A DNA stretch of 64,000 nt from an uncultured Myxococcales bacterium (GTDB lineage Bacteria > Myxococcota_A > Polyangia > Palsa-1104 > JAEUJZ01). Within the stretch, counting starts at the first letter, position 1, and every line of letters starts with the position of its first letter. The notes beneath the pieces were generated by a model, which was given only the letters and a program-made list of their open reading frames with translations, had not been told where the DNA came from and made no database searches. A program made the translations under genes and the position numbers. Below, one piece after another: positions 8,873 to 52,876 of this stretch. Location: contig CAYWPR010000010.1 in the NCBI GenBank assembly GCA_964460115.1, forward strand, positions 14,730 through 78,729. The letters run 5' to 3'.

Positions 8873-10861
8873 ATGGAGCGTCTGCCTAATACCCTTGGCA
8901 ACGTCGTCGAAATACAAGTTGTGTCGGGGGCCCGCTGTGGCGAACAGTTATGGTTCTTTGACGCTGAGCGCATTCGTCTGGGCCGAAACCCGGCCAATGA
9001 AGTGGTGCTGCCCGACAGCGGAGTGTCGCGCTTTCATGCCGAGCTACGTGCTTCCGGAGACGGCGATGGCTATGAACTAGGCGACAGCGGCAGCACGGCC
9101 GGAACATTTCTGGACCAAGCCGGCGTGGCCGAGCGTGTTCCTTTAGAGTCTTCGAAGCTGTTGTCGCCCGGAGTTTATGACGTACTTTTGGGCCAGGGCG
9201 GGCCCCATTGCCGCATTGGTGTAGGCATCAGCGTCCCCTTTGGGCGCTATCGATTGATCGCGCGACTGGGCGGCGGCGGAATGGCCGAAGTTTATTTGGC
9301 CCGTCAAACCGGCCTTGGCGGCTTCAATCGGCCTGTGGCGCTAAAACTGATACAGCCCGAGCTTTTTGACGTGGTCGATGCCAGCGCCATGTTTTTGGAC
9401 GAAGCGCGCATCGCCGCCGAGATCAACCATCACAACGTCGTAAAAATTTACGATGTCGGCGAGCACGACGGCGTCCTGTTTCTAACGATGGAGCACTTGC
9501 GCGGAATCACCCTGTCGCATTTGCGTAACAAGCTACGGCACGTCGGCAAGAAGATGCCGCCGGATTTGGTCGCAGCGCTGCTAAGCCAAGCTTGTGCCGG
9601 ACTTCATGCCACGCATAGCCTGCGCGACCTTGGCGGCCGGCTATTGCACGTCGTGCATCGCGATGTGTCGCCTTCTAATTTGATGTGCACCTCCGAAGGG
9701 CTGCTCAAAGTCATCGATTTCGGAGTGGCGCGCGCCGATACGCGGCTTGTGCAAAAGGATGAAGGTTTGCAAGGCAAGCCGGCGTATATGTCTCCGGAGC
9801 AGATTCAAGGGCGGTCGCTTGATGCGCGTTCCGATGTGTTTGCACTGGGCGTCGTACTGTATGAGCTGTGCTGCGATCGGCCGCTTTTTCAGCGCGATGA
9901 CCTGATGGCGACTTTTTATGCAGTCGTACGCGAAGATGTACCGCCGCTGCGCAGCTTTTGTCCGCAGGCCTCGGCGCAGTTAGAGGCGGCGGTGCATAAA
10001 GCCCTGGCCAAAGATCCGGCGCAGCGCTTTCAAAGTGCCGCGGAATTGGCGCTTGAGCTCGACAAAACCGTGCAAGAGGCAGGCGGGCGCTTTGCCAATA
10101 TCTCGGCGATTGCGCGTTTTTTGCAGGAACTAGACATCCATTTAAATGCCATCGTTCCGGTCTTGCTGAGCCGCGTTCCCAAACCGCTGTTGTCGCGTCG
10201 CGAGCCTGCCCGTCGTAACAGTTCCGTTTCCAAGCCGCTAGCGCGTCCGGCAGAAGTGGCGCCGCCGATCTCTACTGCGCAAGGGCCCGATTCGACCCTT
10301 GGTTTCGTCCCGGTGGCACCGACCGCGCTTTTGAGCGTGACGGTCCCGCTTCCCGGTCCCGAGCACACAGAGCGCCTACGCGGCCCCGCCGGGCATCATC
10401 TATCGATTTGCACGCTGTCTTTTCGCGCTCCGCGGCAACTTACCGCAATGCCTTTGCCGCTGCTTTTGGGCGCTGACCAGCCTTGGCTGCCGGCGCCCAT
10501 CGCGCTGACTGCGCTCGGCACCACATTGATGGTCGAGCTAGAGGAACATCCAGGCGGTCGCGATCGTCCAAGTCTTTATCACAATGCTTTTCTTCCGAAT
10601 ACTCGCTGCGAAAGCTTCACGCTGCAGCCGAGTACTAAGGCCGGCCATTTTGACGTAGGGCATCGCCGAACGACGGTACAAAGGATCGATTATGCAAGCA
10701 CGATTGCCGACTCGGCAGGCAATGGTAGGCTGCGACTGGTTCTGGCCGATTTGCGTGTGGAACTTGTCGGCAGCGTTTCGCTTTTGCGCCTGTGCGCGCT
10801 GCATACAAGCGATGCCGCGCACAAGATGACCTGCTTGATTTGTGTTTTGATTGAGCCCTAA
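8873..10861 (+). CDS. FHA-domain Ser/Thr protein kinase, apparently active (Lys, HRD and DFG present)
   Basis: An N-terminal FHA (LGRNPANEVVLPDSGVSRFHAEL) is followed by a kinase domain with GGGGMAEVYLA, VALKLI, HRDVSPSNLM, DFGVAR and MSPEQ. The ATG at 8873 is 3 nt after the activator stop. Confidence 0.85.
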   Translation: MERLPNTLGNVVEIQVVSGARCGEQLWFFDAERIRLGRNPANEVVLPDSGVSRFHAELRASGDGDGYELGDSGSTAGTFLDQAGVAERVPLESSKLLSPGVYDVLLGQGGPHCRIGVGISVPFGRYRLIARLGGGGMAEVYLARQTGLGGFNRPVALKLIQPELFDVVDASAMFLDEARIAAEINHHNVVKIYDVGEHDGVLFLTMEHLRGITLSHLRNKLRHVGKKMPPDLVAALLSQACAGLHATHSLRDLGGRLLHVVHRDVSPSNLMCTSEGLLKVIDFGVARADTRLVQKDEGLQGKPAYMSPEQIQGRSLDARSDVFALGVVLYELCCDRPLFQRDDLMATFYAVVREDVPPLRSFCPQASAQLEAAVHKALAKDPAQRFQSAAELALELDKTVQEAGGRFANISAIARFLQELDIHLNAIVPVLLSRVPKPLLSRREPARRNSSVSKPLARPAEVAPPISTAQGPDSTLGFVPVAPTALLSVTVPLPGPEHTERLRGPAGHHLSICTLSFRAPRQLTAMPLPLLLGADQPWLPAPIALTALGTTLMVELEEHPGGRDRPSLYHNAFLPNTRCESFTLQPSTKAGHFDVGHRRTTVQRIDYASTIADSAGNGRLRLVLADLRVELVGSVSLLRLCALHTSDAAHKMTCLICVLIEP

Positions 10862-29501: not shown

Positions 29502-30680
29502 TCAGCAGCCAAAGCGCACCGCATAAATCGGCGGTAAGTTGTTCGCCACAGTCATAAAGCCCTCGCCGCCGTCCTCGCTTAGGTACAGATTGCCCGTCGT
29601 GCTGCCAAAGGCCAAGGTTCCTTCCTGATTGGCGAGGGCGTGGCGATAAATTACATCGTATGCGCAATCTTGGGGCAGGCCGCGGCGCAGGGTTCGCCAA
29701 GTCGCGCCGCCGTCCTCGGTGCGTGCCACGAATAGTCCGCCGTCTATAGCCATACGCTGCTGATCCGACCGACCAGGCACGACCCAGGCAGTGCGACCGC
29801 ATTTTGCGTCCACCGTCACCGGAAAACCAAAATGGACGCCCTGCGCCGGGGCGCTTACCTTACGCCAAGATTTTGCCGCATCCGCACTATAGAAAATGCC
29901 GACGTGGTTTTGTTGCCACAGATGGTCAGGATCGCCCTGGCATTGCTCGATGTAATGCGGATCGTGGCCCCACTCGGCCTCAGGCTCGGGCGTATGCTCC
30001 ATCGTCATGCCCTTGTTGGCGCTATGCCACGTCAGTCCGCCATCGAGTGTCTCGATAACACCAGCCGTCGATACGGCCACGAGCATTCGCTTGGGATTTC
30101 GCGGATCGATCACAATCGAGTGAATTCCGGGCGCAAAGTCGCCGCCCTCAGAAGCCGGCGTTCCAAACCATTTCGTCTCGCCTACGCCGTCGCCTTCAAA
30201 TAGGTTACCGCCACGCGACTCGTGGTTCCAAAGCGGCCGGTTCAGCTCGAATGAGGCCCCCGCGTCGTGGCTTACAAAAAGTCCGCCGGGAATGGTTCCG
30301 ACATATACGCGCCCCTCGAGACCAAAACCAATGACCCATAGTTTGGCCAGCGTCGCGGGTTTTGTCGAGATGCGCCAGCCGACTCCGAACTCGGCTGCGG
30401 CGTCTTCGTACATATCCTGGGCGATGTAGCGTGCTCGCTCGGGATATTTGATTTGTGCCGGAGCGTCGGCCCAAGTGGCGCCCGCGTCGTCCGAAATTGA
30501 CAGCTTCGCGCCCCAATGTCCATGGCCAAGCAGTGCCCAAAGGCGCCCGGTATAGGGATCCTGCGCAACGAAATTTACGCCAGCACCAGCGTGAGCAGCC
30601 AGCCGCGGGCGCCAGTGGCCGCTACACTTCTCAACGATGAAAGTGCCTTTGCGCGTGCCGACGAGAATACGAGACGTCAT
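29502..30680 (-). CDS. BNR/Asp-box repeat beta-propeller protein (sialidase / Ycf48-like fold)
   Basis: Five Asp-box-like repeats are present (SDDAGATW, SHDAGASF, TLDGGLTWH, TEDGGATWR, SEDGGEGF). The start ATG abuts the stop of the upstream MoaD-like gene (TAGATG) and is preceded by GGAGG. Confidence 0.7.
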   Translation of the reverse strand: MTSRILVGTRKGTFIVEKCSGHWRPRLAAHAGAGVNFVAQDPYTGRLWALLGHGHWGAKLSISDDAGATWADAPAQIKYPERARYIAQDMYEDAAAEFGVGWRISTKPATLAKLWVIGFGLEGRVYVGTIPGGLFVSHDAGASFELNRPLWNHESRGGNLFEGDGVGETKWFGTPASEGGDFAPGIHSIVIDPRNPKRMLVAVSTAGVIETLDGGLTWHSANKGMTMEHTPEPEAEWGHDPHYIEQCQGDPDHLWQQNHVGIFYSADAAKSWRKVSAPAQGVHFGFPVTVDAKCGRTAWVVPGRSDQQRMAIDGGLFVARTEDGGATWRTLRRGLPQDCAYDVIYRHALANQEGTLAFGSTTGNLYLSEDGGEGFMTVANNLPPIYAVRFGC

Positions 30681-30962
30681 CTAGGAACCTCCGCTCAATG
30701 CTTGAAGAATGTGGACATTGGCGCCGGCGGCGACCGCATCGGAAAGCTTGCGGCGATCGCGGATGAGTTCTTTGTTGATGAAGATGTTGACGTGCGTCCG
30801 CAGGCAGCCGCGTTCGTCGCAGATATAAAAGCCGATGCCCGGTGCTAGTCCATCGAGAGCCCGAATCACCTCACCCACCGTCGAAGCCTCGACCTCGATG
30901 GCTTTTCCATCAAGTTGCGGAAAAAAACTGAACAAATGACGGGTCAGGTGCACGGAGACCAT
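30681..30962 (-). CDS. MoaD/ThiS-family ubiquitin-like protein ending ...ALSGG-S (one residue beyond Gly-Gly)
   Basis: The sequence matches the ThiS/MoaD fold: EASTVGEVIRALDGLAPGIG...THVNIFINKELIRDRRKLSDAVAAGANVHILQALSGG. The ATG at 30962 is preferred over the longer ORF. Confidence 0.65.
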   Translation of the reverse strand: MVSVHLTRHLFSFFPQLDGKAIEVEASTVGEVIRALDGLAPGIGFYICDERGCLRTHVNIFINKELIRDRRKLSDAVAAGANVHILQALSGGS

Positions 30963-31031
30963 GTACGAATCGGTCACACATGCGTCGAAATCATGCAAGC
31001 AAAAGTGCCATTATTGAACGTCAGCCACTGC

Positions 31032-31908: not shown

Positions 31909-33087
31909 TTGCTGGTATTCTGCTACGGGGAGGAGAGTGGTATGGCACTCGCTGAACTATCTCAGCTACAGGTTCTGCTTAGCAAGGCCGACGGGCCCGA
32001 TGTGATCTTCCCGTGTATCCTGGCGGAAGGCGACAAGGCCGCGCAAAGCCAGGCGCTGGAACGCGAGTATCTACGCTTGACTCACATTGCCGATCCCGAA
32101 CGCTTTCGGGGCGATCCGCAAGCTCAAAGCACTGCAAGATGGGTCTTGACCCGGCTTTTTGAATTTCATCATGAAGCGGTTCTGGCCATCGGCGCCAGCG
32201 GCGATGAGGCCAGCGATGACGGGCTGACCTCCGGCCATTTTGCCGGTCTGCCGGCGGAAGCCTTATTTACCGTCACAACCGCCAAGGGAGTCTATCAGGC
32301 CGAGGCCCTTCTTGCCGAAGGAGATTTGTCAACCGTCTACCGAGGCCGCAAGCTACTAGTCACGCCAGATGAAACAGGAGCCGGCCGAGGGGTTGCAATC
32401 AAAGTTGCAGACGACAGCAGCAACAATGATCTTTTACAAAATGAAGTCCATAGTCTGCGGTTCCTAAATCGCGCAGCCACGCCGCAGCGCAAGCATCTAC
32501 CGGTTCTGGTTGACGAATTTCGGACGTCCGATGGCCGCTTTGGTACGGTCTTGCGGCTTATCAAAGGACATTCCTTTTCCGTCATTCATAAGCAGTACAC
32601 GCAGGGCGTTGACGGTCAGCATGCGGCGTGGATCCTGAAACGCTTGCTCAGCGTGCTTGCCCATGCCCATAGCCAAGGGGTCATACACGGCAACATCAAA
32701 CCGGAGCACATCATTGTACAGCCGCAGAATCACAATGTTGTGCTTCTGGACTGGAGCCATTCCATAAGGACCGCACAGCCTGCCGTTTTGAGCATTCCGG
32801 GAATCCTTTCGGACTACAGCGCGCCGGAAATAAGAGAAGAGCAATCGCCTACTGCGGCTTCTGATATTTATTCTGTAGGAAAATGCATGATCATGCTGCT
32901 TGGCGGAGACCTGCATTATGACAGCATTCCTTCCCACATTGATAAGCGGCTGACTTGTTTTCTGCAGACCTTTGTATGGCCAAATCCCCAAGAGCGCGCG
33001 CAAAATGCCGAGCAGTTGCATGAGAAACTGGTGCAGCTTCGTGAAGAAATCTATGGACCGCAGCAGTTCCTAGAATTTGGCATGTAA
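31909..33087 (+). CDS. Protein-kinase-like protein, predicted pseudokinase (HGN replaces HRD, DWS replaces DFG) with an N-terminal unknown domain
   Basis: Motifs present: VAIKVAD, VIHGNIKPEHII, LLDWSHS and YSAPEI. The catalytic Asp of HRD is replaced by Asn. Confidence 0.65.
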   Translation: MLVFCYGEESGMALAELSQLQVLLSKADGPDVIFPCILAEGDKAAQSQALEREYLRLTHIADPERFRGDPQAQSTARWVLTRLFEFHHEAVLAIGASGDEASDDGLTSGHFAGLPAEALFTVTTAKGVYQAEALLAEGDLSTVYRGRKLLVTPDETGAGRGVAIKVADDSSNNDLLQNEVHSLRFLNRAATPQRKHLPVLVDEFRTSDGRFGTVLRLIKGHSFSVIHKQYTQGVDGQHAAWILKRLLSVLAHAHSQGVIHGNIKPEHIIVQPQNHNVVLLDWSHSIRTAQPAVLSIPGILSDYSAPEIREEQSPTAASDIYSVGKCMIMLLGGDLHYDSIPSHIDKRLTCFLQTFVWPNPQERAQNAEQLHEKLVQLREEIYGPQQFLEFGM

Positions 33088-33123
33088 GACCGCCCATTGT
33101 GCTAATCTTCGACGGTTCCATTC

Positions 33124-34551
33124 GTGAATTCCATAGGCTTTGATTCGACAAGAATTCTAATCATTGGTCTTGGATACGGAGACGAGGGCAAGGGAACCAT
33201 CATCGATGCCTTGTGTCGCCGCAAATTGCGGAAACTCAGCACAAAGGCCACCGTCATCCGCTTTAATGGCGGCCCGCAAGCCGCGCATCATGTCGTCGCA
33301 GCGGGGGTTCCGGAACGCACCCATTGTTTTGCGCAATTCGGATCCGGAATGCTTGTGCCCGATGTATGGACGCTGCTTTCGGCATACATGCTGATCGAGC
33401 CGCTGGCTTTGCTGGCAGAGGCCGAGGCGCTCATCAATGTAGGTGTCGTAGCGCCGCTGCGGCGGCTGATTATCGACAGACAATGCGTCGTTGTGACTCC
33501 GTTTCACAGGCTGCTCAACCGCATGCAGGAACTGGCGCGCGGGCCCAAGCGGCACGGCAGTTGTGGACTTGGCGTTGGTCAGGCCTGGCTGGACAGTCGC
33601 AGCACCGGGCGTCCGACGCTGCACATCGGTGACGCGCAGGATGACGTCGCCCTGCGCAAACAGCTTCGATTTATTCAGCTTTGCAAAATCGATTTGGCGG
33701 AACAGATTGTGGAAGCACATGCGAAAGATGAGGCGCTGCATCGGGAACTTGGGCAAATTCTTGACCAGCTTCGGCGGTCCGACTGGATAGAGCGGCTGAG
33801 CCAAGCGTACTCGCTACTGCTGCGCGAAATCGCGGAGCTGGATAATGGCACCGTTTTGCAGCAGACCCTTACAGACAAGAAAAATCCGGTGCTATTTGAG
33901 GGGGCGCAAGGCGTTCTTCTCGATGCCGAGCGGGGATTTTTTCCCTATGTGACGCCGTCGCGCACAACCTTTGACAATGCGCTAGAGCTTCTGCACAACG
34001 CGCAGACTGCTGCAACGCCACTGCGGCTTGGTGTCTTGCGCGCTTATGGCACGCGTCACGGCCCCGGGCCCTTTGTCAGCCACGACGCTGACCTGGAACA
34101 GCGTTTGCCCGAGCTGCACAACGGCCAAAATCCCTGGCAAGGCGCCATGCGTATCGGCTGGCTTGATGCCGTCGCTGCGCGCTATGCCCTGGCGATATCT
34201 GGCGGGGTTACAGCCCTGGCTTTGACGGGACTAGACCGCTTGGCGGGCCTTTCCGTTGTGCGGGTCTGCACGGCCTATCGCTTGCCAAACGGCACGACTC
34301 TAGAACACTTGCCAGTCTCGCCATCGCCCAGCCGCGAACAGCAAATCGAGCTGACGCAACTGCTACGTACCGCGGAACCGATCTACACCGAACTTGCGGG
34401 CTTTACGACATCCCGTGACGGGCCAGAGTTATCTGCCGGTGCGTTGAACTTTGTTCGCTTTTTGGAATCTCCCAGCGGAATCGGCATTCCCATCGCCGTG
34501 GCATCTACTGGCCCGACGGCCAAAGACAAAATTTTCCGTTGGGATTTATGA
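33124..34551 (+). CDS. Adenylosuccinate-synthetase-family protein (divergent PurA paralog)
   Basis: PurA blocks are present: GLGYGDEGKGTIID (P-loop), FEGAQGVLLD, FFPYVTPSRTT, RAYGTRHGPGPF, GWLD and ASTGP. The GRRRR aspartate-binding cluster is replaced by QGAMRIGW. GTTGRGIGP is replaced by GSCGLGVGQ. Confidence 0.8.
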   Translation: MNSIGFDSTRILIIGLGYGDEGKGTIIDALCRRKLRKLSTKATVIRFNGGPQAAHHVVAAGVPERTHCFAQFGSGMLVPDVWTLLSAYMLIEPLALLAEAEALINVGVVAPLRRLIIDRQCVVVTPFHRLLNRMQELARGPKRHGSCGLGVGQAWLDSRSTGRPTLHIGDAQDDVALRKQLRFIQLCKIDLAEQIVEAHAKDEALHRELGQILDQLRRSDWIERLSQAYSLLLREIAELDNGTVLQQTLTDKKNPVLFEGAQGVLLDAERGFFPYVTPSRTTFDNALELLHNAQTAATPLRLGVLRAYGTRHGPGPFVSHDADLEQRLPELHNGQNPWQGAMRIGWLDAVAARYALAISGGVTALALTGLDRLAGLSVVRVCTAYRLPNGTTLEHLPVSPSPSREQQIELTQLLRTAEPIYTELAGFTTSRDGPELSAGALNFVRFLESPSGIGIPIAVASTGPTAKDKIFRWDL

Positions 34552-34605: not shown

Positions 34606-36630
34606 TTAGAATTTCAGCAGGATCTTGGCTTGAAAAGCTTGCGCAATGGTGGAATCGACGCGGCGCGAATCCGTCCAAATCTCTGGCCGCTGCGTCAGCC
34701 CGCCCAGATCAAACAGGACGCCGTATTCCAGCATTGTGAAAAAACCTTCTTCGCGATTGTGGTACATGATGCGCAAATTTAGCTCTGCGCCCATGTTGAC
34801 GGAGTGTCCGGGAAACGCGGCCGGCCGATTGGCCAGCGAATAGATAAACTCTGCCTGTCCACCAAAGCTGTCGATCAGCCAATACGCAATCGACGGCTTT
34901 AAATAGGTGGCGTTATATACCGTTCCCAGGATGCGTCGAAACAGAATCATATCGACGTGGTAATCTGGATCGAAAGTAAAGCGCGAGTTTCGTAGCGCCA
35001 CTCCGCCATTGCCGTCTGAAGGGCCATTTGGCGATTCGCGCGCCAAACGCCAATTGAGCTCGCCAGTTGGATCTCCGTTTTGCGGTCCGCTAGCGCTGCC
35101 GACTTCCAGTCCGACAATCAGACTGTCTTTAAGAAATTTGTAATTGCCGCGAATGATGCCGCCAAGCTGCTGCAAAGACAGCGAGGCTTTGCGAAACACC
35201 GCCGTACCACTGGCGCCCGTGCCGGTGTCGGCGTATACGCCAAGCTCGCCGATTTGGCCGAAAACTCCGGCTCCTTCTACTTCTAGGGTAAGTTTTCGCC
35301 ATTGCAGGCGGGCCCACAGATCCGCGGTCAGACTCCAGGCATTACGCCGGCCAAGCGACTTCTGCAGATCATTTTGCGAAACCAGCGCCGGATTGTCTGG
35401 CCCCGGCGCCATCGTCGCCGGCAAAGTGGTTTGCGGCCGTGGATTGTAGGTCAGATCCCAATCCTGCGTACGCGCCATCAGCAGGGCGCCGTAGTTAAAT
35501 ACCGAAAGTCCTCGCTTCAGCCGATCCGCAATGGTCACTTCATCGTCTTTGCGGCCAATGGCCAAAGTGTACTGGTTTACGTCATCGACATTGTCGAGGT
35601 TATAGTACGAACCAATAAGCTGTTGGTTGCGCACAATCGCCGAGGTCGGCCCGGTGGCCGCCCAGTCATAGGACAACGAGATAAAGTGATTCCAATGACG
35701 GGCAGTCAGCATGATGCGATCCACGGTGACGCCGAAGTCGCAGTCATTGCAGTTGCCGTCGTGAAATAGCATGCCGCTGCCCCACATAAAGGGCATGCGA
35801 CCAAAGTTGATTTCGACGAGCGGAATGCGCACTTCGCCCCAAGCGCGCTTGGCGCGAATCGAAGATTGCAGAGCATTCACAACGGATTCCTGGGGCACTT
35901 GTCCGCGCGTGCCTATTGTTGGATATCCATCGGCTGCGCCACCGCGGCCATTGATGTAGAAACCTTCCGGAGTCGACCCGAGAACCAAATTGTCAAAGAT
36001 ATCGATCTGCGCTTTGATGCGAATATGCTCGGACAGGTTAATGGTCGGGTCTAAGCGGAAGCGGACATCGGCGGTACGAATGCCGCGCTCTAGACAATCC
36101 GCATTGCCACTGCGTTTGGCGCAGCCGCTGTTTTGACTTTGGTTGTTCAGATCCGGAATTTCGGAATAAGGAATCGTAAACGGATTGGCGCGTCTGGATG
36201 GGTCATTGAAGTGACCCAGATTGAAGTTGAACCAATAAAAGCCACGGCCGCGCATATAGCCGTTAAGCTGCAAAAATTGCAGCGATTTTTCTTTTTTGTC
36301 ATGCCATTCCGGAAGTGGCTCGATGGCGGCGTCTCCAGCGGTTTGGCCGGGCGCCTGCTCTGCTGGGCCTTCGGGTTTGTCGGGAGGCGGTCCACCGCCC
36401 ATCCCGCCCATGCCGCCTTGGCCGCCGCCCATGCCGCCCTGCCCTCCCATGGGACGCATGCCGCCGCCCGGCCCAAACTGCGCCAGGGCATCGCTGCTCC
36501 ATAACAGAAATACGCCGCACAAAAGCCAGCGGGCGGTGAAGGAGAAGGTAAAGATGCGTCCGGCGGAGAATTCTTCTCGGCGGAAGGCATCGCTATAGGG
36601 GGAAGAAAATCGAAGTTCTTGGCGGAGCAT
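34606..36630 (-). CDS. Outer-membrane beta-barrel protein (C-terminal ...ILLKF) with an N-terminal Gly/Met-rich low-complexity segment
   Basis: A signal peptide is followed by GPGGGMRPMGGQGGMGGGQGGMGGMGGGPPPD. Amphipathic beta-strand-rich sequence follows, ending in an aromatic residue (Phe). Confidence 0.65.
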   Translation of the reverse strand: MLRQELRFSSPYSDAFRREEFSAGRIFTFSFTARWLLCGVFLLWSSDALAQFGPGGGMRPMGGQGGMGGGQGGMGGMGGGPPPDKPEGPAEQAPGQTAGDAAIEPLPEWHDKKEKSLQFLQLNGYMRGRGFYWFNFNLGHFNDPSRRANPFTIPYSEIPDLNNQSQNSGCAKRSGNADCLERGIRTADVRFRLDPTINLSEHIRIKAQIDIFDNLVLGSTPEGFYINGRGGAADGYPTIGTRGQVPQESVVNALQSSIRAKRAWGEVRIPLVEINFGRMPFMWGSGMLFHDGNCNDCDFGVTVDRIMLTARHWNHFISLSYDWAATGPTSAIVRNQQLIGSYYNLDNVDDVNQYTLAIGRKDDEVTIADRLKRGLSVFNYGALLMARTQDWDLTYNPRPQTTLPATMAPGPDNPALVSQNDLQKSLGRRNAWSLTADLWARLQWRKLTLEVEGAGVFGQIGELGVYADTGTGASGTAVFRKASLSLQQLGGIIRGNYKFLKDSLIVGLEVGSASGPQNGDPTGELNWRLARESPNGPSDGNGGVALRNSRFTFDPDYHVDMILFRRILGTVYNATYLKPSIAYWLIDSFGGQAEFIYSLANRPAAFPGHSVNMGAELNLRIMYHNREEGFFTMLEYGVLFDLGGLTQRPEIWTDSRRVDSTIAQAFQAKILLKF

Positions 36631-36667: not shown

Positions 36668-37735
36668 TCAACCGCCCATAATTTTGCCGATGATAAATAG
36701 GATGAGCAGCAGGCCGATGATTCCGCCGCCGGTCATGGCAACCCAGAACAGCCAGCCTCGATCTGCGGCGGCAGCCGGCTCAAAGGGCGGCAAAACCACC
36801 TGCACCGTTTCGGATTGAATGTCGCTGCCGCCGCTGTGAAAAGCCACCTGAAGGGCATGCTGCGCGTTGTCACCGGTGCTGGTCAAGCTGAACGTGACGA
36901 CGCGGGCGCCATACAAGCCGTCGATGGTTTGCACGAAGCGCTCGGAAATATCCTCTGCCGTTTTGCAGCCGCGGGCCGTGCCGCCAGATTGACGCGAGAT
37001 TTCGATGAGCGAACGCAGCCGCCCCGGCTCAAAGGGCGCAAAGCCAACGCTATCGATGATGATGCCGGCATCGTGGGCCCGCCGACCGACATCGGCAAAT
37101 GCATCTTTGCCCTGCTGTCCGTCGATTCCATCGGAAAACAAGATGACGCGGCGACGCCGATCCGTATGCTCACGCGCCAGATCAATGGCCACGCGCAACG
37201 CATCCACCATGCGCACCTCGCTGGCCTCTTGATCAATTTTGAGCTTATCGAGATCGCGCGCGATTTCTTTGGGCCGGCCAAGTTCTTCGAGCCGTTTGAC
37301 TTCGTTGGCGTAGCCGATGATGCCCAGCCGGCTGTCCGGGTGATGTTTGCCAAGCAGCTTGGCCAGCCGCGAGATGCCTTCGCGTACATGCCGCATCGCC
37401 GGTTCCATCACCGGCGACAACTGCACCACGACGACTACGTCCAGCGGCTCCTTGGCTTCTAAAAATGGCGTCACCGAAATGGTCAAGTCTTTCTGCTCGA
37501 CCTGGTCGAGCAGAAGCTTGTAGCCGCTGTTACCGCTCAGCACTTTGCCATCGCCGTCGATGACCGAGACATAAGTCTTTAGCTGAGGCAGCTTGTCGGT
37601 CTGTACCCCTTCAAGATGAACTTTGATATCGTCGGCCCAAGCCATCTTGGCCGGGGCCGGGCAGAGCCCGCCAAGCAAACAGACGGAAAGAGCGGCCAAG
37701 ATTCGAAACCGGCGCATCAGATGACCTCGCGTCAA
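36668..37735 (-). CDS. von Willebrand factor A (VWA) domain protein with signal peptide and C-terminal TM anchor
   Basis: The VWA core reads DVVVVVQLSPVM...ILFSDGIDGQ. The C-terminal hydrophobic stretch is WLFWVAMTGGGIIGLLLILFIIG. Confidence 0.75.
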   Translation of the reverse strand: MTRGHLMRRFRILAALSVCLLGGLCPAPAKMAWADDIKVHLEGVQTDKLPQLKTYVSVIDGDGKVLSGNSGYKLLLDQVEQKDLTISVTPFLEAKEPLDVVVVVQLSPVMEPAMRHVREGISRLAKLLGKHHPDSRLGIIGYANEVKRLEELGRPKEIARDLDKLKIDQEASEVRMVDALRVAIDLAREHTDRRRRVILFSDGIDGQQGKDAFADVGRRAHDAGIIIDSVGFAPFEPGRLRSLIEISRQSGGTARGCKTAEDISERFVQTIDGLYGARVVTFSLTSTGDNAQHALQVAFHSGGSDIQSETVQVVLPPFEPAAAADRGWLFWVAMTGGGIIGLLLILFIIGKIMGG

Positions 37736-38702: not shown

Positions 38703-41357
38703 TTGAATGTGCGGCACGCATTCTCGCGAGCTGCTGATATTCTAGATGTCACCATGATGTCCGGACCTGCGGATCCGAAGTCCTCGCAAGCGCAACCAAG
38801 CTGGGTGGTTGGTCCGCCGGTGGCTCCGGCCAGCCGTCTGGGCCAGCTTATCGACGGTGAGTTTCTAATAAAGAGCATCCTTGGACAAGGCGAGCTCGGA
38901 GTCACCTACGAAGCCGACAACACCCGCCATAAACGCCGGTTCGCGGTGCTGATGCTCAGCCGCGGGCTAAAGCCTACACATGCCATGATGCTGGCGGTCC
39001 GCGATGATCTGCGACACGGGCAGCAACTGTCGGCCGCAGGCCTTATGCCGGTCAAAGCGATCGCCGATCGCGATGGCATTCCTGGCTTTGCCACCGAGCT
39101 TGTCGACGGCGAAACGCTGCGCAGCCGTTTGGGCCGCGGACCGCTGCGGGTCGAACGGGCGCTGGCCATCGCGCTCAGTTTGGCGCGGACCCTAGAAGCG
39201 GCCCACAAAGTTGGGCTCATACATGGCGATTTGCGCCCCGAAAATATTTTCTTGGTCCGCCCCGAAGCCAAAAGCGCCTTCGCCGGCAAGGTCATGGTCG
39301 TCGAACACGCGATGCATCACCTGCGCCGAAGAACTCCGGGCTTAGACGATCGGCTGCCTCTATACAAGCTGATGTATCGGCCCCCCGAGCAAGTCCTTGG
39401 CGAAGCCGGCGCCAGCGAGCAGGGCGACGTCTGGGTACTTGGAGCCATTTTGTATGAGTGCCTGACCGGCAAGCCGGCTTTTTACGCCGAAGAGCCAGAG
39501 TTTGTCCTCGATAATCTAGGACAAGCGCCACCGCCGCTGCAGCCTAATGCCGCCACCGGTCTTAGCGCCGAGCTGGCCGCGGCTTTCAATCTGCTTATCG
39601 CGAGCAGCTCGGCTCGAGCCCTGGAAAGCCGCGTCGCCAATATGACGGAACTGCGCGAGGGCATTGAACAGCTTGTGCGCGGCGCGCGGCTATTTTTGCC
39701 CGAAGTTCTGGTCGAGTCGCACAAGGAAGCAGCCACATCTGCCCAGCCGGCAAGCACCTCCAATCGGCGAATGAATCAACTGCTGCAGCGGCTGTCCGGG
39801 GTGTTTCCGCAGATTCCGCTTGTCGGCTCCGGGACTTCGTCGACGACTGACGCCACCGCCGCACCGCCTGCTACGCAGGGACAAGCATCGACGCAGGCTA
39901 GTGATCGCCCGACGACACAGCCCAAGCTAGTTCCGCTAGAACCCATTACTCCGGCCAAGGAGCGGGTCAATCGCATCCTGTCCAGATTGTCTGGGGCCTA
40001 TCCGACCACGGATGCGACACCGCAGACGCGGCCACCGATTGCCGATGCTCCGCTGGCGGGGCTATTTGCAGATTCGGCCCTATTGCCGAACCCGCCTGTG
40101 GATCCAGCGGCCCCCTCGCCACCTGCGCAGCCGAACTCACCGGCCGTGCCGGCCGCTCCGAACGTCCCGAGCGCGCCCGCGGCCCCCGCCGAACCGGCTG
40201 AAGCATCCCCGCCGGCCCCGCCGGCCGCACCGACTCCGCCGGCGCTCCCTGAAGCCCTTGCAGCAGTTGATACACCGACGCTGCCGCCGCGAGTACTGCC
40301 AATCTCGCAGCCCCTGCAAACTGTGGCGCCAGATTCAGTACCGCTCAGCGAGCAGTTGACAAGGCCAGCGATCATTCCGCTCTCCCAGTGGCCAAGTCCG
40401 CCCGCCAAAGCCGATGGGCCCGCCGCTGCCGTTTTGCTACAAGCCAGTGAGAGCGAGGAAGCGGTGGCTGATTCTGCCAAGCCCTCGCAAGAAACGCCGA
40501 CCTCGGCCAAAACCCCGCAACTGCTTCGTATCGAGGAGCGCCCCACCCGAGTGGACAGCACCCTGCCGGCGGCGCTGCTCGCGCCGCTGTCCGATCCTGC
40601 GCTGCCTACGCTGCACGTGTTCGCCAGTCTTCCGACGATGCCGAATTTGGCTGAAATTGCCGAGACGATTCATCCGTTAGGCGCTTCGGCATCTGAGCGC
40701 TTGCATGCACAAGCGACCCAGCCGGCGCTGCAGCGTTTACCCATCAATGAAAAAGCCACGCAGGCCAAACTGGATGCGCTGAGCCCGACCGTCATGGCTC
40801 CCTCTACCCCGACCGCGGTGTTGCCGATGCAAAGCGCCGCCTCTCATACATCGACCCTGTCTGCCCATCCTTCATTGATTGAAATATCGACGCTGGAACC
40901 TCTGCCGCTGGGCAATTCGGAACAGAAAGTTTCGGCCGAGCCGCTTACGCCGCCGCCGCTACCGATTTCGTCGCCGCTGCTGCCCGTGCCGCCACCAATG
41001 CCCGCAGCGGCCGCCGCGCCGCCAGCCGCCGAAACGACGGAGGACGAAAAGCAGCGGGCGCCGCGAGTTTCGCAACTGATTGCAGCGTTGCAAGCGCAGC
41101 AGATGCCGCCGCCCGCTGCGTCGCCACCTGACGAACCTCGACGGCGAATGTCGCCGGGGTTGATTGCGCCCGCACCCGACATTTTTGCGCCGGTCCAGAT
41201 TATGCGGCTCTCAAGCTCGAATGAAACTCAGGTTGCACCCGCCGAACAGCGAGGCGCCCTGGCCTGGGTGTTACGCCATCAAGAAGCCGTCGCCGCACTG
41301 GCGGGCGCGCTTTTGGTCATCCTTGGAGTGCTCGTTTATCTGCTATTTCACGCCTAA
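38703..41357 (+). CDS. Ser/Thr-kinase-like protein (probably a pseudokinase: no beta3 Lys, no DFG) with a >500-aa Pro/Ala-rich linker and a C-terminal TM tail anchor
   Basis: Motifs present: GELGVTYEAD, HGDLRPENIFLV and YRPPEQ. VAIK and DFG are missing. The C-terminal ALAGALLVILGVLVYLLF is a TM helix. An (N)xLLxRLSGxxP motif is duplicated. Confidence 0.7.
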   Translation: MNVRHAFSRAADILDVTMMSGPADPKSSQAQPSWVVGPPVAPASRLGQLIDGEFLIKSILGQGELGVTYEADNTRHKRRFAVLMLSRGLKPTHAMMLAVRDDLRHGQQLSAAGLMPVKAIADRDGIPGFATELVDGETLRSRLGRGPLRVERALAIALSLARTLEAAHKVGLIHGDLRPENIFLVRPEAKSAFAGKVMVVEHAMHHLRRRTPGLDDRLPLYKLMYRPPEQVLGEAGASEQGDVWVLGAILYECLTGKPAFYAEEPEFVLDNLGQAPPPLQPNAATGLSAELAAAFNLLIASSSARALESRVANMTELREGIEQLVRGARLFLPEVLVESHKEAATSAQPASTSNRRMNQLLQRLSGVFPQIPLVGSGTSSTTDATAAPPATQGQASTQASDRPTTQPKLVPLEPITPAKERVNRILSRLSGAYPTTDATPQTRPPIADAPLAGLFADSALLPNPPVDPAAPSPPAQPNSPAVPAAPNVPSAPAAPAEPAEASPPAPPAAPTPPALPEALAAVDTPTLPPRVLPISQPLQTVAPDSVPLSEQLTRPAIIPLSQWPSPPAKADGPAAAVLLQASESEEAVADSAKPSQETPTSAKTPQLLRIEERPTRVDSTLPAALLAPLSDPALPTLHVFASLPTMPNLAEIAETIHPLGASASERLHAQATQPALQRLPINEKATQAKLDALSPTVMAPSTPTAVLPMQSAASHTSTLSAHPSLIEISTLEPLPLGNSEQKVSAEPLTPPPLPISSPLLPVPPPMPAAAAAPPAAETTEDEKQRAPRVSQLIAALQAQQMPPPAASPPDEPRRRMSPGLIAPAPDIFAPVQIMRLSSSNETQVAPAEQRGALAWVLRHQEAVAALAGALLVILGVLVYLLFHA

Positions 41358-48243: not shown

Positions 48244-48819
48244 TTATTGTCCGTCGATTTTTTCGAGTTTTTCGTCGATTTTTCGTGCGGACAGCGCCAA
48301 TAACTTGGCGGCCCCGGCCGACACAGAATCGCCAAATTCCCGCGAGCTTTGTTGTAACTGCTTGGCCAGCATCCGCTTCTGCGCGCGACGACGCAGATCA
48401 TCGGGGTTGGGAAAAAGGACGCCGCGCAGGTGCAAAAGCAGCCAGGTCGTCCACAGCACCATGGGCAGCGCCAACCACAGCGGAGTTCCGGTCCACACCC
48501 CCGTAAGAAAAAGGAGTCCATTTAGCGATGCAAAAGCGATAAAGTGCCCAGTCAGACGCCGATAGCCCAGTTGATGAATCTCGTGCTCGGCGGTCAAAAG
48601 CCGCTGGTCGACTTCGTACTGGGCTAGCGCGGTCGTCGCCTGCGCTTCGGAATAGCCAAGTTCCCGCGCGGTTTCGATAAGCTCACCGCGCGTAAAGCCA
48701 TTTCCCTGGGTCTCACTCGCCCCGGCATCCGGAGTTGCCAGTCGCTGCACGCGGCGCAGCACTTCATGCGCTTGCTGCTGGCTGTAGTGTCTTTTCGAAG
48801 TTCGATCTTGCGACGCCAT
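48244..48819 (-). CDS. 2TM-domain membrane protein
   Basis: Two adjacent TM helices are present (FIAFASLNGLLFLTGVW / LWLALPMVLWTTWLLLHL), flanked by charged helical regions. Confidence 0.5.
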   Translation of the reverse strand: MASQDRTSKRHYSQQQAHEVLRRVQRLATPDAGASETQGNGFTRGELIETARELGYSEAQATTALAQYEVDQRLLTAEHEIHQLGYRRLTGHFIAFASLNGLLFLTGVWTGTPLWLALPMVLWTTWLLLHLRGVLFPNPDDLRRRAQKRMLAKQLQQSSREFGDSVSAGAAKLLALSARKIDEKLEKIDGQ

Positions 48820-48947
48820 ATATATTTCAGTCTGCCCCACGCGATTTGACGCGGCAAGCCGCGAACAAGCTGCGCACAAACGCGTACAAGATCGCGCCCT
48901 TGATGCTTGGCGTTGCGCCACAAGCGTGCGAGTATCGTTGCCTCTTC

Positions 48948-50429
48948 ATGCGGCTACGCCAATACGATGATCTAGATGCCCTCGCGCTGGCTGAACTCAT
49001 TGCCAAAAAGGAGCTATCGCCGCAAGAGGTGCTGGAAGCAGCCATCGAGCGCATTACGGAACGCAATCCGCGCCTCAACGCGGTCGTGCATACTTTGTTT
49101 GAACGCGCGCGAGCGCGGGTCGCTGACCTGCCCGATGGCCCTTTGCGTGGTGTGCCTTTTCTGCTCAAAGATTTGAAACTGCAGCTTGCCGGCACGCCGA
49201 CGACAGGCAGCACGCGCCTGGCCATGTCCAAGATTGCGACCCAAAGCAGCGTGCTCACCGAGCGATACGAAGCCGCCGGACTGCAGATTCTGGGCAAGAC
49301 CAATACTCCAGAGCTTGGCATCATGGGGGTTACTGAGCCGGCCGTTCGTGGTCCTTGCAAAAATCCCTGGAACTTGGCCCATACCTCGGGCGGCAGTTCC
49401 GGAGGCGCAGCCGCAGCAGTAGCAGCGCGCATGGTCCCCATTGCCCATGGCGGCGACGGCGGAGGCTCTATTCGCATTCCGGCCTCGGCCTGCGGTTTGT
49501 TTGGATTAAAACCCACCCGCGGTCGCGTGACGATGGCGCCTTTTGCCGGGGAAGGATGGGGCGGATTTGTGCAAGAGCACGTGCTAAGCCGCTCGGTGCG
49601 CGACAGCGCAGCGCTGCTTGACATTGCCGATCCGCCCACCCCGGGCGAGCCTTATGGAGTTCCGGCCAAAGCCCGACCGTGGCTGGAAGAAGTCGGACGA
49701 GATCCTGGAAAGCTGCGCATCGCCTTCAGCAAACAGCCTTTTTATAGCGGTCAAACCCATCCAGACTGTGCAGCCGCTGTAGATGATTCCATCAAGCTGC
49801 TTAGCAGCCTTGGCCACGAAGTGGTTGAAGCTCGTCCCGCATTTTCGCGACAAGACATGGTCGCTGCCTACTTTTTGACGGTGGCCGTCCACGTTGCGCG
49901 GACTGTGGAGCAAATCAGCCAAGAAGCCGGCAAAAAGACGCCCGATGCGGCCGACTTTGAAGCGGTGACTTATCTTTTGGCATGCATCGGCTGGAAAACC
50001 AGCGCCCCCAAACTGCTGGCCGCGCAGCAGCTTATGCAAAAAACCGCACGCGACGTCGCAGGCTTTTTTCAGCAGTACGATATGCTGCTGACGCCGACTC
50101 TGGCCCAGCCGCCTGTGCGCATTGGGCAACTTGAAATGACGCGCAGCGAGCTTTTGCAATTGGCGATACTGCGCACCCTGCCCCTTGGCAAGCTGCTCGA
50201 TCTGGCATTGCACAACATGGGCGGCGCCAAGCTGGCCTATACGCCCAACACCCAGCTATACAATCAGATTGGTCAGCCGGCGATGAGCGTGCCGCTTTTC
50301 ACAAACGCGCAAGGACTGCCCATCGGAGTGCAGTTTGGCGCCGGCTTTGGAGAGGAAGCGAAGCTATTTCGTTTGGCGGCGCAGCTTGAAGCCGCCCGAC
50401 CTTGGGCAACGCGCAAGCCCCCCCTCTAA
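48948..50429 (+). CDS. Amidase (amidase-signature family, GatA-like)
   Basis: The amidase signature GGSSGGAAAAVAARMVPIAHGGDGGGSIRIPASACGLFGLKPTRG is present with a Ser-cisSer-Lys context. Confidence 0.85.
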   Translation: MRLRQYDDLDALALAELIAKKELSPQEVLEAAIERITERNPRLNAVVHTLFERARARVADLPDGPLRGVPFLLKDLKLQLAGTPTTGSTRLAMSKIATQSSVLTERYEAAGLQILGKTNTPELGIMGVTEPAVRGPCKNPWNLAHTSGGSSGGAAAAVAARMVPIAHGGDGGGSIRIPASACGLFGLKPTRGRVTMAPFAGEGWGGFVQEHVLSRSVRDSAALLDIADPPTPGEPYGVPAKARPWLEEVGRDPGKLRIAFSKQPFYSGQTHPDCAAAVDDSIKLLSSLGHEVVEARPAFSRQDMVAAYFLTVAVHVARTVEQISQEAGKKTPDAADFEAVTYLLACIGWKTSAPKLLAAQQLMQKTARDVAGFFQQYDMLLTPTLAQPPVRIGQLEMTRSELLQLAILRTLPLGKLLDLALHNMGGAKLAYTPNTQLYNQIGQPAMSVPLFTNAQGLPIGVQFGAGFGEEAKLFRLAAQLEAARPWATRKPPL

Positions 50430-51055: not shown

Positions 51056-52876
51056 ATGATCATCTTGGGCCTTAACGCCTACCATGGCGATGCCAGCGCG
51101 GCCTTGCTAGTCAATGGCGATTTGGTCGGAGCCGTCGAAGAAGAACGCCTGAACCGGCAAAAACACTGCGCCGGCTTTCCCAAGTTGGCAGTGGCAAGCT
51201 GTTTGTCGCTAGCACCGGCCGAAATTTCGGCGCAGGACATCGATCACGTCGCAATCTCACGCGATCCGCGGGCCCAGATTTTGCGCAAAGCCGCTTATCT
51301 AAGCGGTCAAGCATTGCACTTGGTCCTTTCGCCTGCTGCGCAAAGCCACCGCGCGAATTTTTTGGCAACGCTGCGCCAGCGTCTTTCCAATCGCCAGCGC
51401 TTGCACAAGCTGCACAACGTTCTGGCGGCGGCGCTTAGCGTTTCTCCGCAGCATCTGCGCGCCAAATTTCATGCCGTCGAGCATCATCGCGCCCATCTTG
51501 GCAGTGCATTTTTCGCTTCGGAATTTTCCGAAGCGGCGGTGCTGTCTCTGGATGGCTTTGGCGATTTTGTATCGACGATGTGGGGCATCGGCCGCGATAG
51601 GCACATCGATGTGCTGGGCGAGGTTTGCTTTCCTCATTCCCTGGGCGTGCTTTATACCGCTGTCTGCCAGTGGCTCGGTTTTGCCAAGTATGGCGATGAA
51701 GGCAAGGTCATGGGACTGTCGGCCTATGGCCGTCCGCGTCATCTTGAAAGGATGCGGGCGCTTTTGCAGCTAGGCGACTCGGATACCGGCCATTTCGCGC
51801 TGAATTTGCGCTACTTTCGCCATCATCGCGCAGGCGTGGACATGAGCTTTTTGGACGGAACGCCCAGCCTTGGCAAGCTGTATGCGCCAGCGCTCTGCGA
51901 ACTTTTGGGCGCGCCCCGTCCGCCCGGACCCGACATCGAAAAAGAGGAGTATTTCTGCGATGTGGCGGCCAGTCTGCAAGCCTTGCTGGAAGAGGCAGTC
52001 CTGCACATCTGCAAAGCGCTGTACCGGCGAACCGGACTGCGCCGTCTGTGTCTGGCCGGCGGAGTCGCTTTAAACTGCGTGGCCAACGGACGAATTCTTG
52101 ATGAAAGCGGATTTCGCGAGCTCTTTATTCAACCAGCAGCCGGCGACAATGGCACGGCGCTCGGCGCAGCGCTGTGGGTCGAGCATCAGATTCTTGGCCG
52201 ACCGCGCCGCTTTGTCATGCGACATGCCTACACCGGCCCGCAATTTGATGAAGCTGCCTGCCGCGCCGCGGTGAAACAATTTCGCAAAGATTTTTCGTGC
52301 GACTGGCCTCTCGAACGACTCAGCGAATTCGAACGCGTCGAGCGCGCCGCCAGCGCCATCGCCGATGGCGCCGTGCTCGGCTGGTATCAGGGGCGCATGG
52401 AATTTGGTCCGCGGGCGCTAGGACATCGCAGCATTTTGTGCGATCCGCGCAATCCGCAAATCAAAGAAGTACTCAACCGTCGCATCAAGCATCGCGAGCC
52501 ATTTCGCCCATTTGCTCCCTCGGTGCTTGCCGACCAAGCGGCGGACTGGTTCGAGCGCGGCGCTCCCTCGCCAGCTATGTTGCTAGTGGACCGCGTGCGC
52601 CAAGAACGGTGGGCCCTTGTGCCGGCGGTGACCCATCAAGATGGAACCGCGCGGCTTCAGACTGTATCCGCCGAATCTAGCCCGCTTTATTACGCGCTGC
52701 TGCAAGCTTTTTGGCGCCGCACCGGAGTGCCCATGCTGCTAAACACGTCCTTTAACGAGCACGAACCCATCGTCTGTACCCCCGCCGAGGCGCTGCACTG
52801 CTTTGCCAAAACCCACATGGACGTGCTGGTTCTAGGTCCGTTTTATATCGAACGCCCCGGCTGGCATCCGCAATGA
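51056..52876 (+). CDS. Carbamoyltransferase (NodU/CmcH family)
   Basis: The N-terminal block MIILGLNAYHGDASAALLVNGDLVGAVEEERLNRQKH is present, along with the conserved C-terminal domain. Confidence 0.85.
   Translation: MIILGLNAYHGDASAALLVNGDLVGAVEEERLNRQKHCAGFPKLAVASCLSLAPAEISAQDIDHVAISRDPRAQILRKAAYLSGQALHLVLSPAAQSHRANFLATLRQRLSNRQRLHKLHNVLAAALSVSPQHLRAKFHAVEHHRAHLGSAFFASEFSEAAVLSLDGFGDFVSTMWGIGRDRHIDVLGEVCFPHSLGVLYTAVCQWLGFAKYGDEGKVMGLSAYGRPRHLERMRALLQLGDSDTGHFALNLRYFRHHRAGVDMSFLDGTPSLGKLYAPALCELLGAPRPPGPDIEKEEYFCDVAASLQALLEEAVLHICKALYRRTGLRRLCLAGGVALNCVANGRILDESGFRELFIQPAAGDNGTALGAALWVEHQILGRPRRFVMRHAYTGPQFDEAACRAAVKQFRKDFSCDWPLERLSEFERVERAASAIADGAVLGWYQGRMEFGPRALGHRSILCDPRNPQIKEVLNRRIKHREPFRPFAPSVLADQAADWFERGAPSPAMLLVDRVRQERWALVPAVTHQDGTARLQTVSAESSPLYYALLQAFWRRTGVPMLLNTSFNEHEPIVCTPAEALHCFAKTHMDVLVLGPFYIERPGWHPQ

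Follow-up and report, generated by a model that had tools for sequence, protein, structure and literature searches.

The DNA analyzed here is a stretch of 64,000 nucleotides from an uncultured Myxococcales bacterium (assembly GCA_964460115.1, contig CAYWPR010000010.1, positions 14,730 to 78,729), referred to below as the window, and the subject of this work is a pair of adjacent genes that encode a kinase-fold protein (C1) and, directly downstream, a relative of adenylosuccinate synthetase (AdSS, PurA), named C0. Both genes are part of a so far undescribed cassette that is widespread and mobile, and it is well supported that C0 is not the housekeeping PurA. As judged from residue conservation, the phosphotransfer half of the C0 active site is conserved, and the aspartate site together with most of the site for the 5'-phosphate of inosine monophosphate (IMP) is not. 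The C0 family recurs beside genes of nicotinamide adenine dinucleotide (NAD) and ADP-ribose metabolism, not beside purine genes. The reading towards which we lean, with a modest degree of confidence, is that C0 would use guanosine triphosphate (GTP) to activate a nucleotide, which would then be captured by a nucleophile other than aspartate, within NAD/ADP-ribose metabolism and with C1 as a regulator or scaffold.

Sequence and active site of C0

C0 has the PurA fold over its whole length. It is matched by the Pfam model PF00709 (Adenylsucc_synt) with an E-value of 1.6e-70 over residues 13-468, which cover model positions 2-414 of 416, and it can be aligned end to end with E. coli PurA (1ADE; residues 10-468, E 9e-46, 29.7% identity). 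Both purA equivalog models are failed, NF002223 with 212 bits vs a cut-off of 402 and TIGR00184 with 198 vs 396, and the PurZ model NF038379 gives 43 bits for a cut-off of 300. On the hidden Markov model (HMM) of its own subfamily, which is marked by RHGSCG, TRHG, and HNxxxxWQG, C0 scores 682 bits, with members at 411 bits or more and canonical PurA at 229 bits. In a neighbor-joining tree the C0 family is separate from E. coli PurA and from an actinobacterial PurA.

Residues are given below in E. coli numbering, and all residue counts for C0 refer to an alignment of C0 and 120 database homologues (121 sequences) with E. coli PurA. In the AdSS of Helicobacter pylori, IMP is bound by Asp12, Asn37, Gly119, Thr121, Thr230, Val264, Arg294, and Arg135 of the partner subunit, and an anion is held by Arg294 together with Arg296 (PMC11571797, Table 3). 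These positions correspond to D13, N38, G127, T129, T239, V273, R303, and R143, and the anion pair to R303/R305. The equivalent of Thr129 binds the IMP 5'-phosphate in AdSS (PMC11571797, Table 3), and R303 touches both the ribose 2'-OH and the aspartate (PMC8342488).

The loop that receives the second substrate is remodelled throughout the C0 family: T300 is replaced by W, F, or Y and T301 by Q (121/121), the loop is one residue shorter, R303 is deleted, and R305 is replaced by M or F, the version found in the window being T300W, T301Q, R303 deleted and R305M. The initial annotation had described the arginine cluster of this loop as missing, and the cluster was not merely shifted, as HMMER, MAFFT and an ungapped comparison from the GW anchor all gave one Arg vs four in E. 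coli. Of the four ligands of the IMP 5'-phosphate (Asn38, Thr129, Thr239, and Arg143 of the partner subunit), Thr239 is the only one retained in the family. Other family-wide changes comprise T129 to C or V, R131L (variable), G294H, mostly L or V at position 143, and C, N, H, G, or S in place of K331. For the residues that had been singled out before, Asp13 and His41 are thus kept, Thr128/129 are changed, and Arg303/305 are lost in the family (the individual motifs and their counts are listed in Table 1).

In the family, 107 columns are conserved at ≥ 90%, of which the C0 of the window matches 103 and E. coli PurA 69, with 38 being family-specific. Such a constrained pattern (103/107 columns) argues for a functional enzyme with changed substrates and not for a decaying gene. 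In the C0 proteins of a Rhodococcus plasmid (L087) and of phage I3 (L088) the P-loop reads GDAGKG, not GDEGKG (Glu14 to Ala), with Asp13 and Lys16 kept.

When compared with PurA (EC 6.3.4.4), C0 shares the whole-length fold, GDEGKG, His41, Gln224, Thr239, Asp333, and STGP, and the retention of these elements makes it likely that a GTP-dependent phosphoryl activation like that of PurA is preserved. It differs by its score below the equivalog cut-off, by the remodelled aspartate loop, by N38Q, T129C, R131L, and V273H, by an R143 that is not conserved and by the loss of K331, and its family has operon partners and an NAD-linked context instead of a purine context. In the loop, Trp/Phe, Gln, Met/Phe, and His have taken the place of every carboxylate-binding Arg and Thr residue, which makes an acidic amino acid unlikely as the second substrate. 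The earlier proposal that C0 ligates a different nucleotide/carboxylate pair is thus unlikely in its carboxylate part.

The contig of Micromonospora chalcea (L075) that encodes the C0 paralogue also has a canonical purA (633 bits, cut-off 402), approximately 7 kb away, and therefore the paralogue is not the AdSS of that organism. This coexistence, the score below the purA cut-off and the family-wide loss of the aspartate loop and of most IMP-phosphate ligands all bear out the initial annotation in its view that C0 is not the housekeeping enzyme.

The pseudokinase C1

C1 matches the Pfam Pkinase model (E 1e-17), and its AlphaFold model, with a predicted local distance difference test score (pLDDT) of 84, has PknA/PknB as the best Foldseek matches (E 1e-11, target-normalised template modelling score 0.73-0.76), with an extra helical N-terminal domain of 84 residues. 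The protein upstream of C0 is hence a kinase fold without the catalytic Asp (HGNIKPEH), as had been noted before, and this holds for the whole family, in which the HRD Asp is present in 0/51 members and the catalytic loop follows the pattern HG[N/A]xxPxH. The C1 of the window keeps K154 (the beta3 Lys), E168 (the alphaC Glu), and D270 (the DFG Asp), and these residues mark it as a predicted nucleotide-binding pseudokinase. On the HMM of the C1 family it scores 406 bits and matches 28 of the 32 family-conserved columns, by which measure it is a true orthologue of the cassette protein.

In most members of the family an N-terminal J domain with an HPD motif is found, that of L005 passing the DnaJ Pfam cut-off (28.9 bits), and the presence of this motif indicates that C1 is in most lineages fused to an Hsp70-recruiting J domain. 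The C1 of the window has no HPD (the sequence is H-I-A-D-P), and its clade has ADP, ATP, or ANP at this place, with ATP in the close relative L084 and ANP in L081.

C1 shares with the Hanks-type kinases PknA and PknB the bilobal kinase fold and three residues, namely beta3 Lys, alphaC Glu, and DFG Asp, and it differs from them in lacking the HRD Asp in 51/51 members, in the change of the catalytic-loop Asn to His and in the N-terminal J domain of the family. The C1 family is not among the bacterial pseudokinases reviewed in PMC12599244.

Composition of the cassette

Neighbors of C0 were surveyed by clustering the neighboring genes of 80 loci, followed by a scan of all six-frame open reading frames (ORFs) with HMMs, and co-occurrence was counted in the 62 loci with at least 3 kb of sequence upstream of C0. 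The conserved gene order is C1 (J-domain pseudokinase), C2 (VWA/YfaP protein) and C0 (PurA-like). Both C1 and C2 accompany C0 in 42 of the 62 loci, C2 alone in 7 and neither in 13, and C1 alone was found in none. The orthologous pseudokinase is thus a frequent partner (42/62 assessable loci), which confirms the co-occurrence that the initial annotation had proposed to check; what it missed were the third partner C2, the mobility of the cassette and the link to NAD/ADP-ribose genes.

C2 has 330-500 residues, with an invariant N-terminal Met-Gly, a D-x-T-x-S sequence resembling a metal ion-dependent adhesion site, and a conserved C-terminal Arg-Leu; in its long form a beta-sandwich is inserted. 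A profile search with its sequence against Pfam and PDB sequences gave no match, and its structural model (pLDDT 76) shows a VWA fold, with a Foldseek E-value of 2e-8 for integrin beta I-like and SpaC vWFA domains. In the source records it is named 'YfaP family protein' or 'VWFA domain-containing protein', and the C2 family comprises approximately 750 clusters at 50% identity (E below 1e-30).

No C2 homologue was detected in the 64-kb window by the HMM scan, and the locus is an atypical, reduced version of the cassette, C1-C0 without C2. Its C0 and C1 still match nearly all family-conserved positions. In the closest relatives of the window (L081 and L084, 57-60% identity) the order is C1-C2-C0, and a large kinase-TPR protein is encoded next.

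In L001, L002, L006, and L011 a solo C0 gene is preceded by a 196-residue ORF, which is no remnant of either C1 or C2. A further protein of approximately 420 residues (cluster C11; L005, L044, L021, L034, L054, and L073) adjoins the cassette in Melainabacteria, Uhrbacteria, and two other loci, and it had no match in Pfam, NCBIfam, PADLOC, or PDB. The PADLOC defense models gave no match to C0, C2, C4, or C11 and only generic kinase matches to C1.

Anantharaman, Iyer and Aravind are said to have described, in 2012, TerY-type triads of a vWA protein, a kinase and a phosphatase, as well as Ter-linked modules for nucleoside-like metabolites. The cassette resembles such triads in pairing a vWA protein with a kinase-fold protein, and in Rhizobium phage RHph_TM2_3B the pair adjoins PRTase_3 (PF15610) and HAD genes; it differs in having neither a PP2C phosphatase nor TerD, and its kinase partner is catalytically dead. 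To our knowledge, a PurA-like enzyme is not part of Ter systems.

Distribution in bacteria, plasmids and phages

For the family census, the signature peptides RAY[AG]TRHGxG and RHGS[CV]GxGVG were searched in contigs representing one genome per species (approximately 186,000 species genomes). They matched at least 600 stretches, of which at least 531 encode a C0 relative. The distribution among hosts is patchy and includes Myxococcota, Acidobacteriota, Chloroflexota, Actinomycetota, many lineages of the Candidate Phyla Radiation (CPR), Melainabacteria, Bdellovibrionota, and Leptospiraceae.

The cassette is mobile and has been spread horizontally, among other ways by phages and plasmids. C1-C2-C0 with a Nudix gene behind it is present on eleven megaplasmids of Rhodococcus, among them those of R. 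jostii RHA1 and R. opacus 1CP, and the triad is found in approximately 200 mycobacteriophages of phage cluster C1 (Bixzunavirus). In phage I3 it is formed by gp270 ('kinase', 273 bits, with HPD and VHGAITPDN), gp271 (331 bits), and gp273 ('PurA-like adenylosuccinate synthetase', 354 bits). A genome announcement counts the kinase and the PurA-like gene among those conserved in, and unique to, the phages of subcluster C1 (PMC9476963). C2-C0 without C1 occurs in ten Rhizobium phages and six Vibrio phages. In these phages a conserved protein of approximately 250 residues precedes C2-C0 in the place of the bacterial C1 (L091 5774-6568; L092 6207-6932); its C-terminus is of low complexity and rich in Met and Gly, and Pfam gave no match.

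Association with NAD and ADP-ribose genes

A gene of the NrtR type (Nudix plus winged helix; NrtR_WHD E 6e-22) is present in 20 of the 80 loci, which belong to Actinomycetota, Chloroflexota, CPR, and Acidobacteriota, and in the loci of Actinomycetota it usually opens the operon and has an intact Nudix box. Directly upstream of C1, a NadE-NadD fusion is encoded in 10 loci. L005 additionally contains genes for PncA, PncB, and a uridine-kinase-like protein, and one in which Nudix is joined to a nucleoside deoxyribosyltransferase-like domain. Among the phages, HAD, PRTase_3, and Nudix genes are neighbors in Rhizobium phage RHph_TM2_3B, a NADAR-domain gene lies near C2-C0 in Vibrio phage Va1, and phage I3 encodes a PnuC-like transporter of nicotinamide riboside. 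A truncated, pyruvate-kinase-like barrel with its KIE and RDDL motifs kept stands between C2 and C0 in 14 loci, and in Nannocystis a PPK2 gene follows two genes downstream of a solo C0; the barrel and PPK2 could regenerate GTP.

PncA/PncB were rejected as general neighbors, being limited to one or two loci, as was LOG, which occurs in a single one. In this locus (L003) a LOG/SLOG gene (9396-9974; Lysine_decarbox, E 8e-43) lies directly upstream of C0.

Phages are known to rebuild NAD+ in order to evade NAD-depleting defenses, by NARP1 (Adps and Namat) and NARP2 (Nampt and Nmnat) (bioRxiv 10.1101/2024.02.11.579819). The likeness lies in small, phage-borne enzyme sets tied to NAD and ADP-ribose, the cassette being phage-borne and found beside Nudix, NADAR, NrtR, and NadE-NadD; the difference lies in the protein families, which are unrelated, and any such activity of the cassette is a prediction from its genes. 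PurA-like genes are mentioned neither in that study (bioRxiv 10.1101/2024.02.11.579819) nor in a survey of viral NAD-ADPr systems (PMC9503650), and the full-text literature contained no description of the C0 family that we could find.

Proposed function and alternatives

In the reading that we favor, C0 would bind GTP through the P-loop and Asp333 and move its gamma-phosphate to an oxygen of a bound nucleotide, aided by the equivalents of Asp13, Lys16, His41, and Gln224, a role suggested by their conservation. Because the side chains for the IMP 5'-phosphate and the 2'-OH are largely replaced, the phosphoryl acceptor is probably not plain IMP. A nucleophile other than L-aspartate, bound in an invariant, uncharged aromatic/polar pocket (Trp/Phe, Gln, Met/Phe, and two new His), would then displace the phosphate, and C0 would in this way keep a rare chemistry, in which an oxygen is activated by GTP and subsequently displaced by nitrogen. 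The gene context points to a place in the salvage or reconstitution of NAD/ADP-ribose, possibly in a phage-host conflict over NAD. C1 should be unable to phosphorylate by the normal mechanism and keeps the nucleotide-binding Lys and Asp, and its most likely role would be to sense nucleotides and to regulate C0 or act as its scaffold. In most lineages this may involve the Hsp70-recruiting J domain; the window has a degenerate J domain and lacks the VWA partner.

Several points weigh against this reading. The chemistry assigned to C0 is deduced from the conservation of residues. The 64-kb window contains no NAD-related gene, NrtR or C2 (operator sites were not searched for), and the context argument is therefore borrowed from its relatives. 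Even there, neighbors of the NAD type are found in a minority of the loci, as raw counts with which no background rate was compared, and NrtR-family regulators do not all control NAD genes. Partners of the VWA, J-domain, and pseudokinase kinds are, moreover, found more typically in signalling or protein-level systems than with metabolic enzymes. C1 without C2 was seen in 0 of the 62 other loci, and the copy in the window could be a decaying remnant.

A narrower version, which we consider rather improbable, would make C0 the core of an undescribed route of NAD+ re-synthesis, which would serve bacteria under the control of NrtR/ADP-ribose and would help large phages against NAD-depleting immunity. 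In analogy to the PurA reaction, C0 would phosphorylate the anomeric 1''-OH of ADP-ribose (or of a related NAD breakdown product) with GTP, and nicotinamide held in the Trp/Gln/His/Met pocket would displace the phosphate, so that NAD+ would be formed in one enzyme, regulated by the VWA protein and the pseudokinase. The mycobacterial toxin MbcT reportedly performs the phosphorolysis of NAD+, of which the second step of this route would be the reverse.

Another reading, likewise unlikely in our estimation, takes C0 for a protein-directed ligase, by which the GTP-activated nucleotide would be joined to an amine of the VWA partner C2 (the N-terminal Gly being exposed after removal of Met), with C1 as an adaptor or recruiter of chaperones. 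The invariant N-terminal Met-Gly and the conserved C-terminal Arg-Leu of C2 would agree with it, as would the many C1 proteins with an HPD-containing J domain, the status of C2-C0 as the most conserved pair, phages included, and an uncharged pocket that suits a peptide amine better than aspartate. However, C0 is found without C2 in 13/62 loci and in the window with its conserved residues intact, and the interaction of C0 with C2 on which this reading depends is hypothetical.

We also give little credence to C0 as a non-catalytic, GTP-binding switch, i.e., a pseudoenzyme in a signalling or defense complex with the pseudokinase and the VWA protein. Its partners are typical of signalling and conflict systems, its distribution is sporadic and mobile, and the substrate-binding residues are heavily altered, but D13 and H41 (the catalytic base and acid), K16, and Q224 are invariant or nearly so, the 107 columns conserved at ≥ 90% are unusual for a pseudoenzyme, and none of C0, C2, and C4 was matched by the PADLOC defense models.

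Somewhat more doubtful is a PurZ-like role, in which C0 would make a modified (deoxy)purine nucleotide for nucleic-acid modification, e.g., an N6-substituted adenine for phage or host DNA. PurZ, too, is a phage-carried paralogue with the PurA fold and an altered nucleotide specificity, and C0 relatives are carried by three groups of large phages that are unrelated to each other; R303, which in PurA touches the ribose 2'-OH and in PurZ is displaced (PMC8342488), is absent from C0, and its loss could admit deoxynucleotides. Against this stand the PurZ score far below the cut-off (43 vs 300 bits) and the second-substrate loop, as PurZ still works with aspartate and retains the TT loop tip that contacts it (PMC8342488), where C0 has W-Q-G in place of T-T-G. 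The partner genes are other ones, with no DatZ-, MazZ-, or DpoZ-like genes seen nearby, and neither the NrtR/NadE-NadD context nor the presence in CPR bacteria would be explained. LOG enzymes free bases from N6-substituted AMP, and the LOG/SLOG gene directly upstream of C0 in L003 would thus fit the product of an N6-ligase, but it was found in this one locus only.

Finally, a divergent housekeeping AdSS (IMP, Asp, and GTP) with an incidental kinase-like neighbor can hardly be maintained: a full-length PurA fold in which every catalytic and GTP residue is retained, a purD gene without a second purA in the 64 kb and the name adenylosuccinate synthase in public records of family members speak for it, and it is opposed by 212 bits vs the 402-bit equivalog cut-off, the loss of R303, R305, T300, and T301, the family-wide changes of N38 and T129 together with R143 being mostly L/V, the joint presence of a canonical purA and the paralogue in Micromonospora, and pseudokinase and VWA partners that are conserved across phyla and in phages.

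The label 'adenylosuccinate synthase' under which the family stands in public records is almost certainly wrong, and it would distort metabolic reconstructions, e.g., of purine salvage in CPR bacteria. Knowledge of the C0 substrates would reveal either a new reaction of nucleotide ligases or a new part of NAD/ADP-ribose metabolism, which may be relevant for phage counter-defense, and would also give a function to a conserved family of J-domain pseudokinases. The cassette is present in culturable and genetically tractable systems (R. jostii RHA1, R. opacus, and Bixzunavirus phages of M. smegmatis).

Organization of the locus and neighboring genes

Both ORFs, the gap between them and all the motifs quoted in the initial annotation were recovered at the same places in C0 and C1 (Table 1), and the Pfam E-values put both family assignments far outside chance. 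The ATG at 31942 is almost certainly the true start of C1, because the exact 381-residue protein is on record as P0241 and this start aligns with the N-termini of the orthologues. No terminator-like site was found in the spacer by a promoter/terminator scan, which was otherwise uninformative, and C1 and C0 are probably co-transcribed as a two-gene operon. Two independent public assemblies (L085 and L086) also show the kinase gene followed by the PurA-like gene, with no gene in between.

An exact-sequence look-up of the 475-residue C0 gave no match. In public gene calls of the same sequence (L085 1649-2851; L086 1836-3038) C0 is begun at an internal ATG, which yields 400 residues and loses the GDEGKG P-loop; the GTG start at 33124 gives a full-length C0 that aligns with its homologues.

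Table 1 Features of the C1-C0 locus, in coordinates of the window
Feature	Coordinates	Strand	Description
C1 ORF	31942-33087	+	ATG start, 381 aa; degenerate J-like helical N-domain (residues 1-84) and Hanks-type pseudokinase domain
C1 ORF, longer option	31909-33087	+	Open from TTG, 392 aa
Remnant of J-domain HPD region (YLRLTHIADPERF)	32068-32106	+	His of HPD lost
Beta3 strand VAIKV	32392-32406	+	ATP-binding Lys, invariant in 51/51 family members
Catalytic loop HGNIKPEH	32686-32709	+	HRD Asp to Asn; loop Asn to His
DFG-equivalent LLDWSH	32743-32760	+	Metal-binding Asp kept; approximately 43/51 in family
Spacer C1-C0	33088-33123	+	36 bp
C0 ORF	33124-34551	+	475 aa from GTG; PurA superfamily, predicted GTP-dependent ligase of a distinct non-AdSS subfamily
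P-loop GDEGKG	33178-33195	+	Asp13 and Lys16, each 121/121
GGPQAAHH	33268-33291	+	Asn38 to Gln in 121/121; His41 kept in 121/121; Thr42 to His
RHGSCGLGVGQ	33550-33582	+	Former IMP-phosphate loop GTTGRGIGP; T128S, T129C, R131L; new invariant Arg-His ahead
FEGAQG	33895-33912	+	Gln224: Gln in 111/121, His in 10/121
FPYVTPS	33940-33960	+	PurA block present
TRHGPGPF	34051-34074	+	Val273 to His, 121/121
Remodelled second-substrate loop HNGQNPWQGAMRIGW	34117-34161	+	Stands where PurA has GNEFGATTGRRRRTGW
LTGLD, guanine-specificity (N/T)KxD motif	34222-34236	+	Asp333 kept in 121/121; Lys331 to Gly
STGP	34504-34515	+	PurA block present

An HMM scan of the six-frame ORFs detected no canonical purA elsewhere in the 64-kb window, and no Rfam family reached its gathering score in it. 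Directly 3' of C0 and convergent to it, a 674-residue protein with a Gly/Met-rich N-terminal region and no Pfam match is encoded (34606-36630, minus strand). It is followed by a 355-residue VWA-domain protein (36668-37735, minus strand), which has an N-terminal signal-like segment and a C-terminal hydrophobic segment and shows no homology to the cassette protein C2 by tblastn or HMM. An 884-residue Ser/Thr kinase is encoded further downstream (38703-41357, plus strand); its HGDLRPEN loop is intact, and it has a long region rich in Pro and Ala as well as a hydrophobic C-terminal segment. In close relatives of the cassette, C0 is directly followed by a kinase-TPR gene of 850-900 residues, of which the 884-residue kinase of the window is not the best match.

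In the last quarter of the window, purD, whose presence had been noted by the initial annotation and which has all three GARS domains, a FIST-domain sensor protein, a carbamoyltransferase of the NodU/CmcH type and an amidase are encoded at 62517-63791 (minus strand), 59567-60790 (minus strand), 51056-52876 (plus strand), and 48735-50429 (plus strand), the coordinates being paired with the genes in the order listed. On the other side of the cassette, a small protein of the ThiS family (30681-30998, minus strand) is encoded directly upstream of a BNR/sortilin-like repeat protein (29502-30680, minus strand), which is an unusual pairing.

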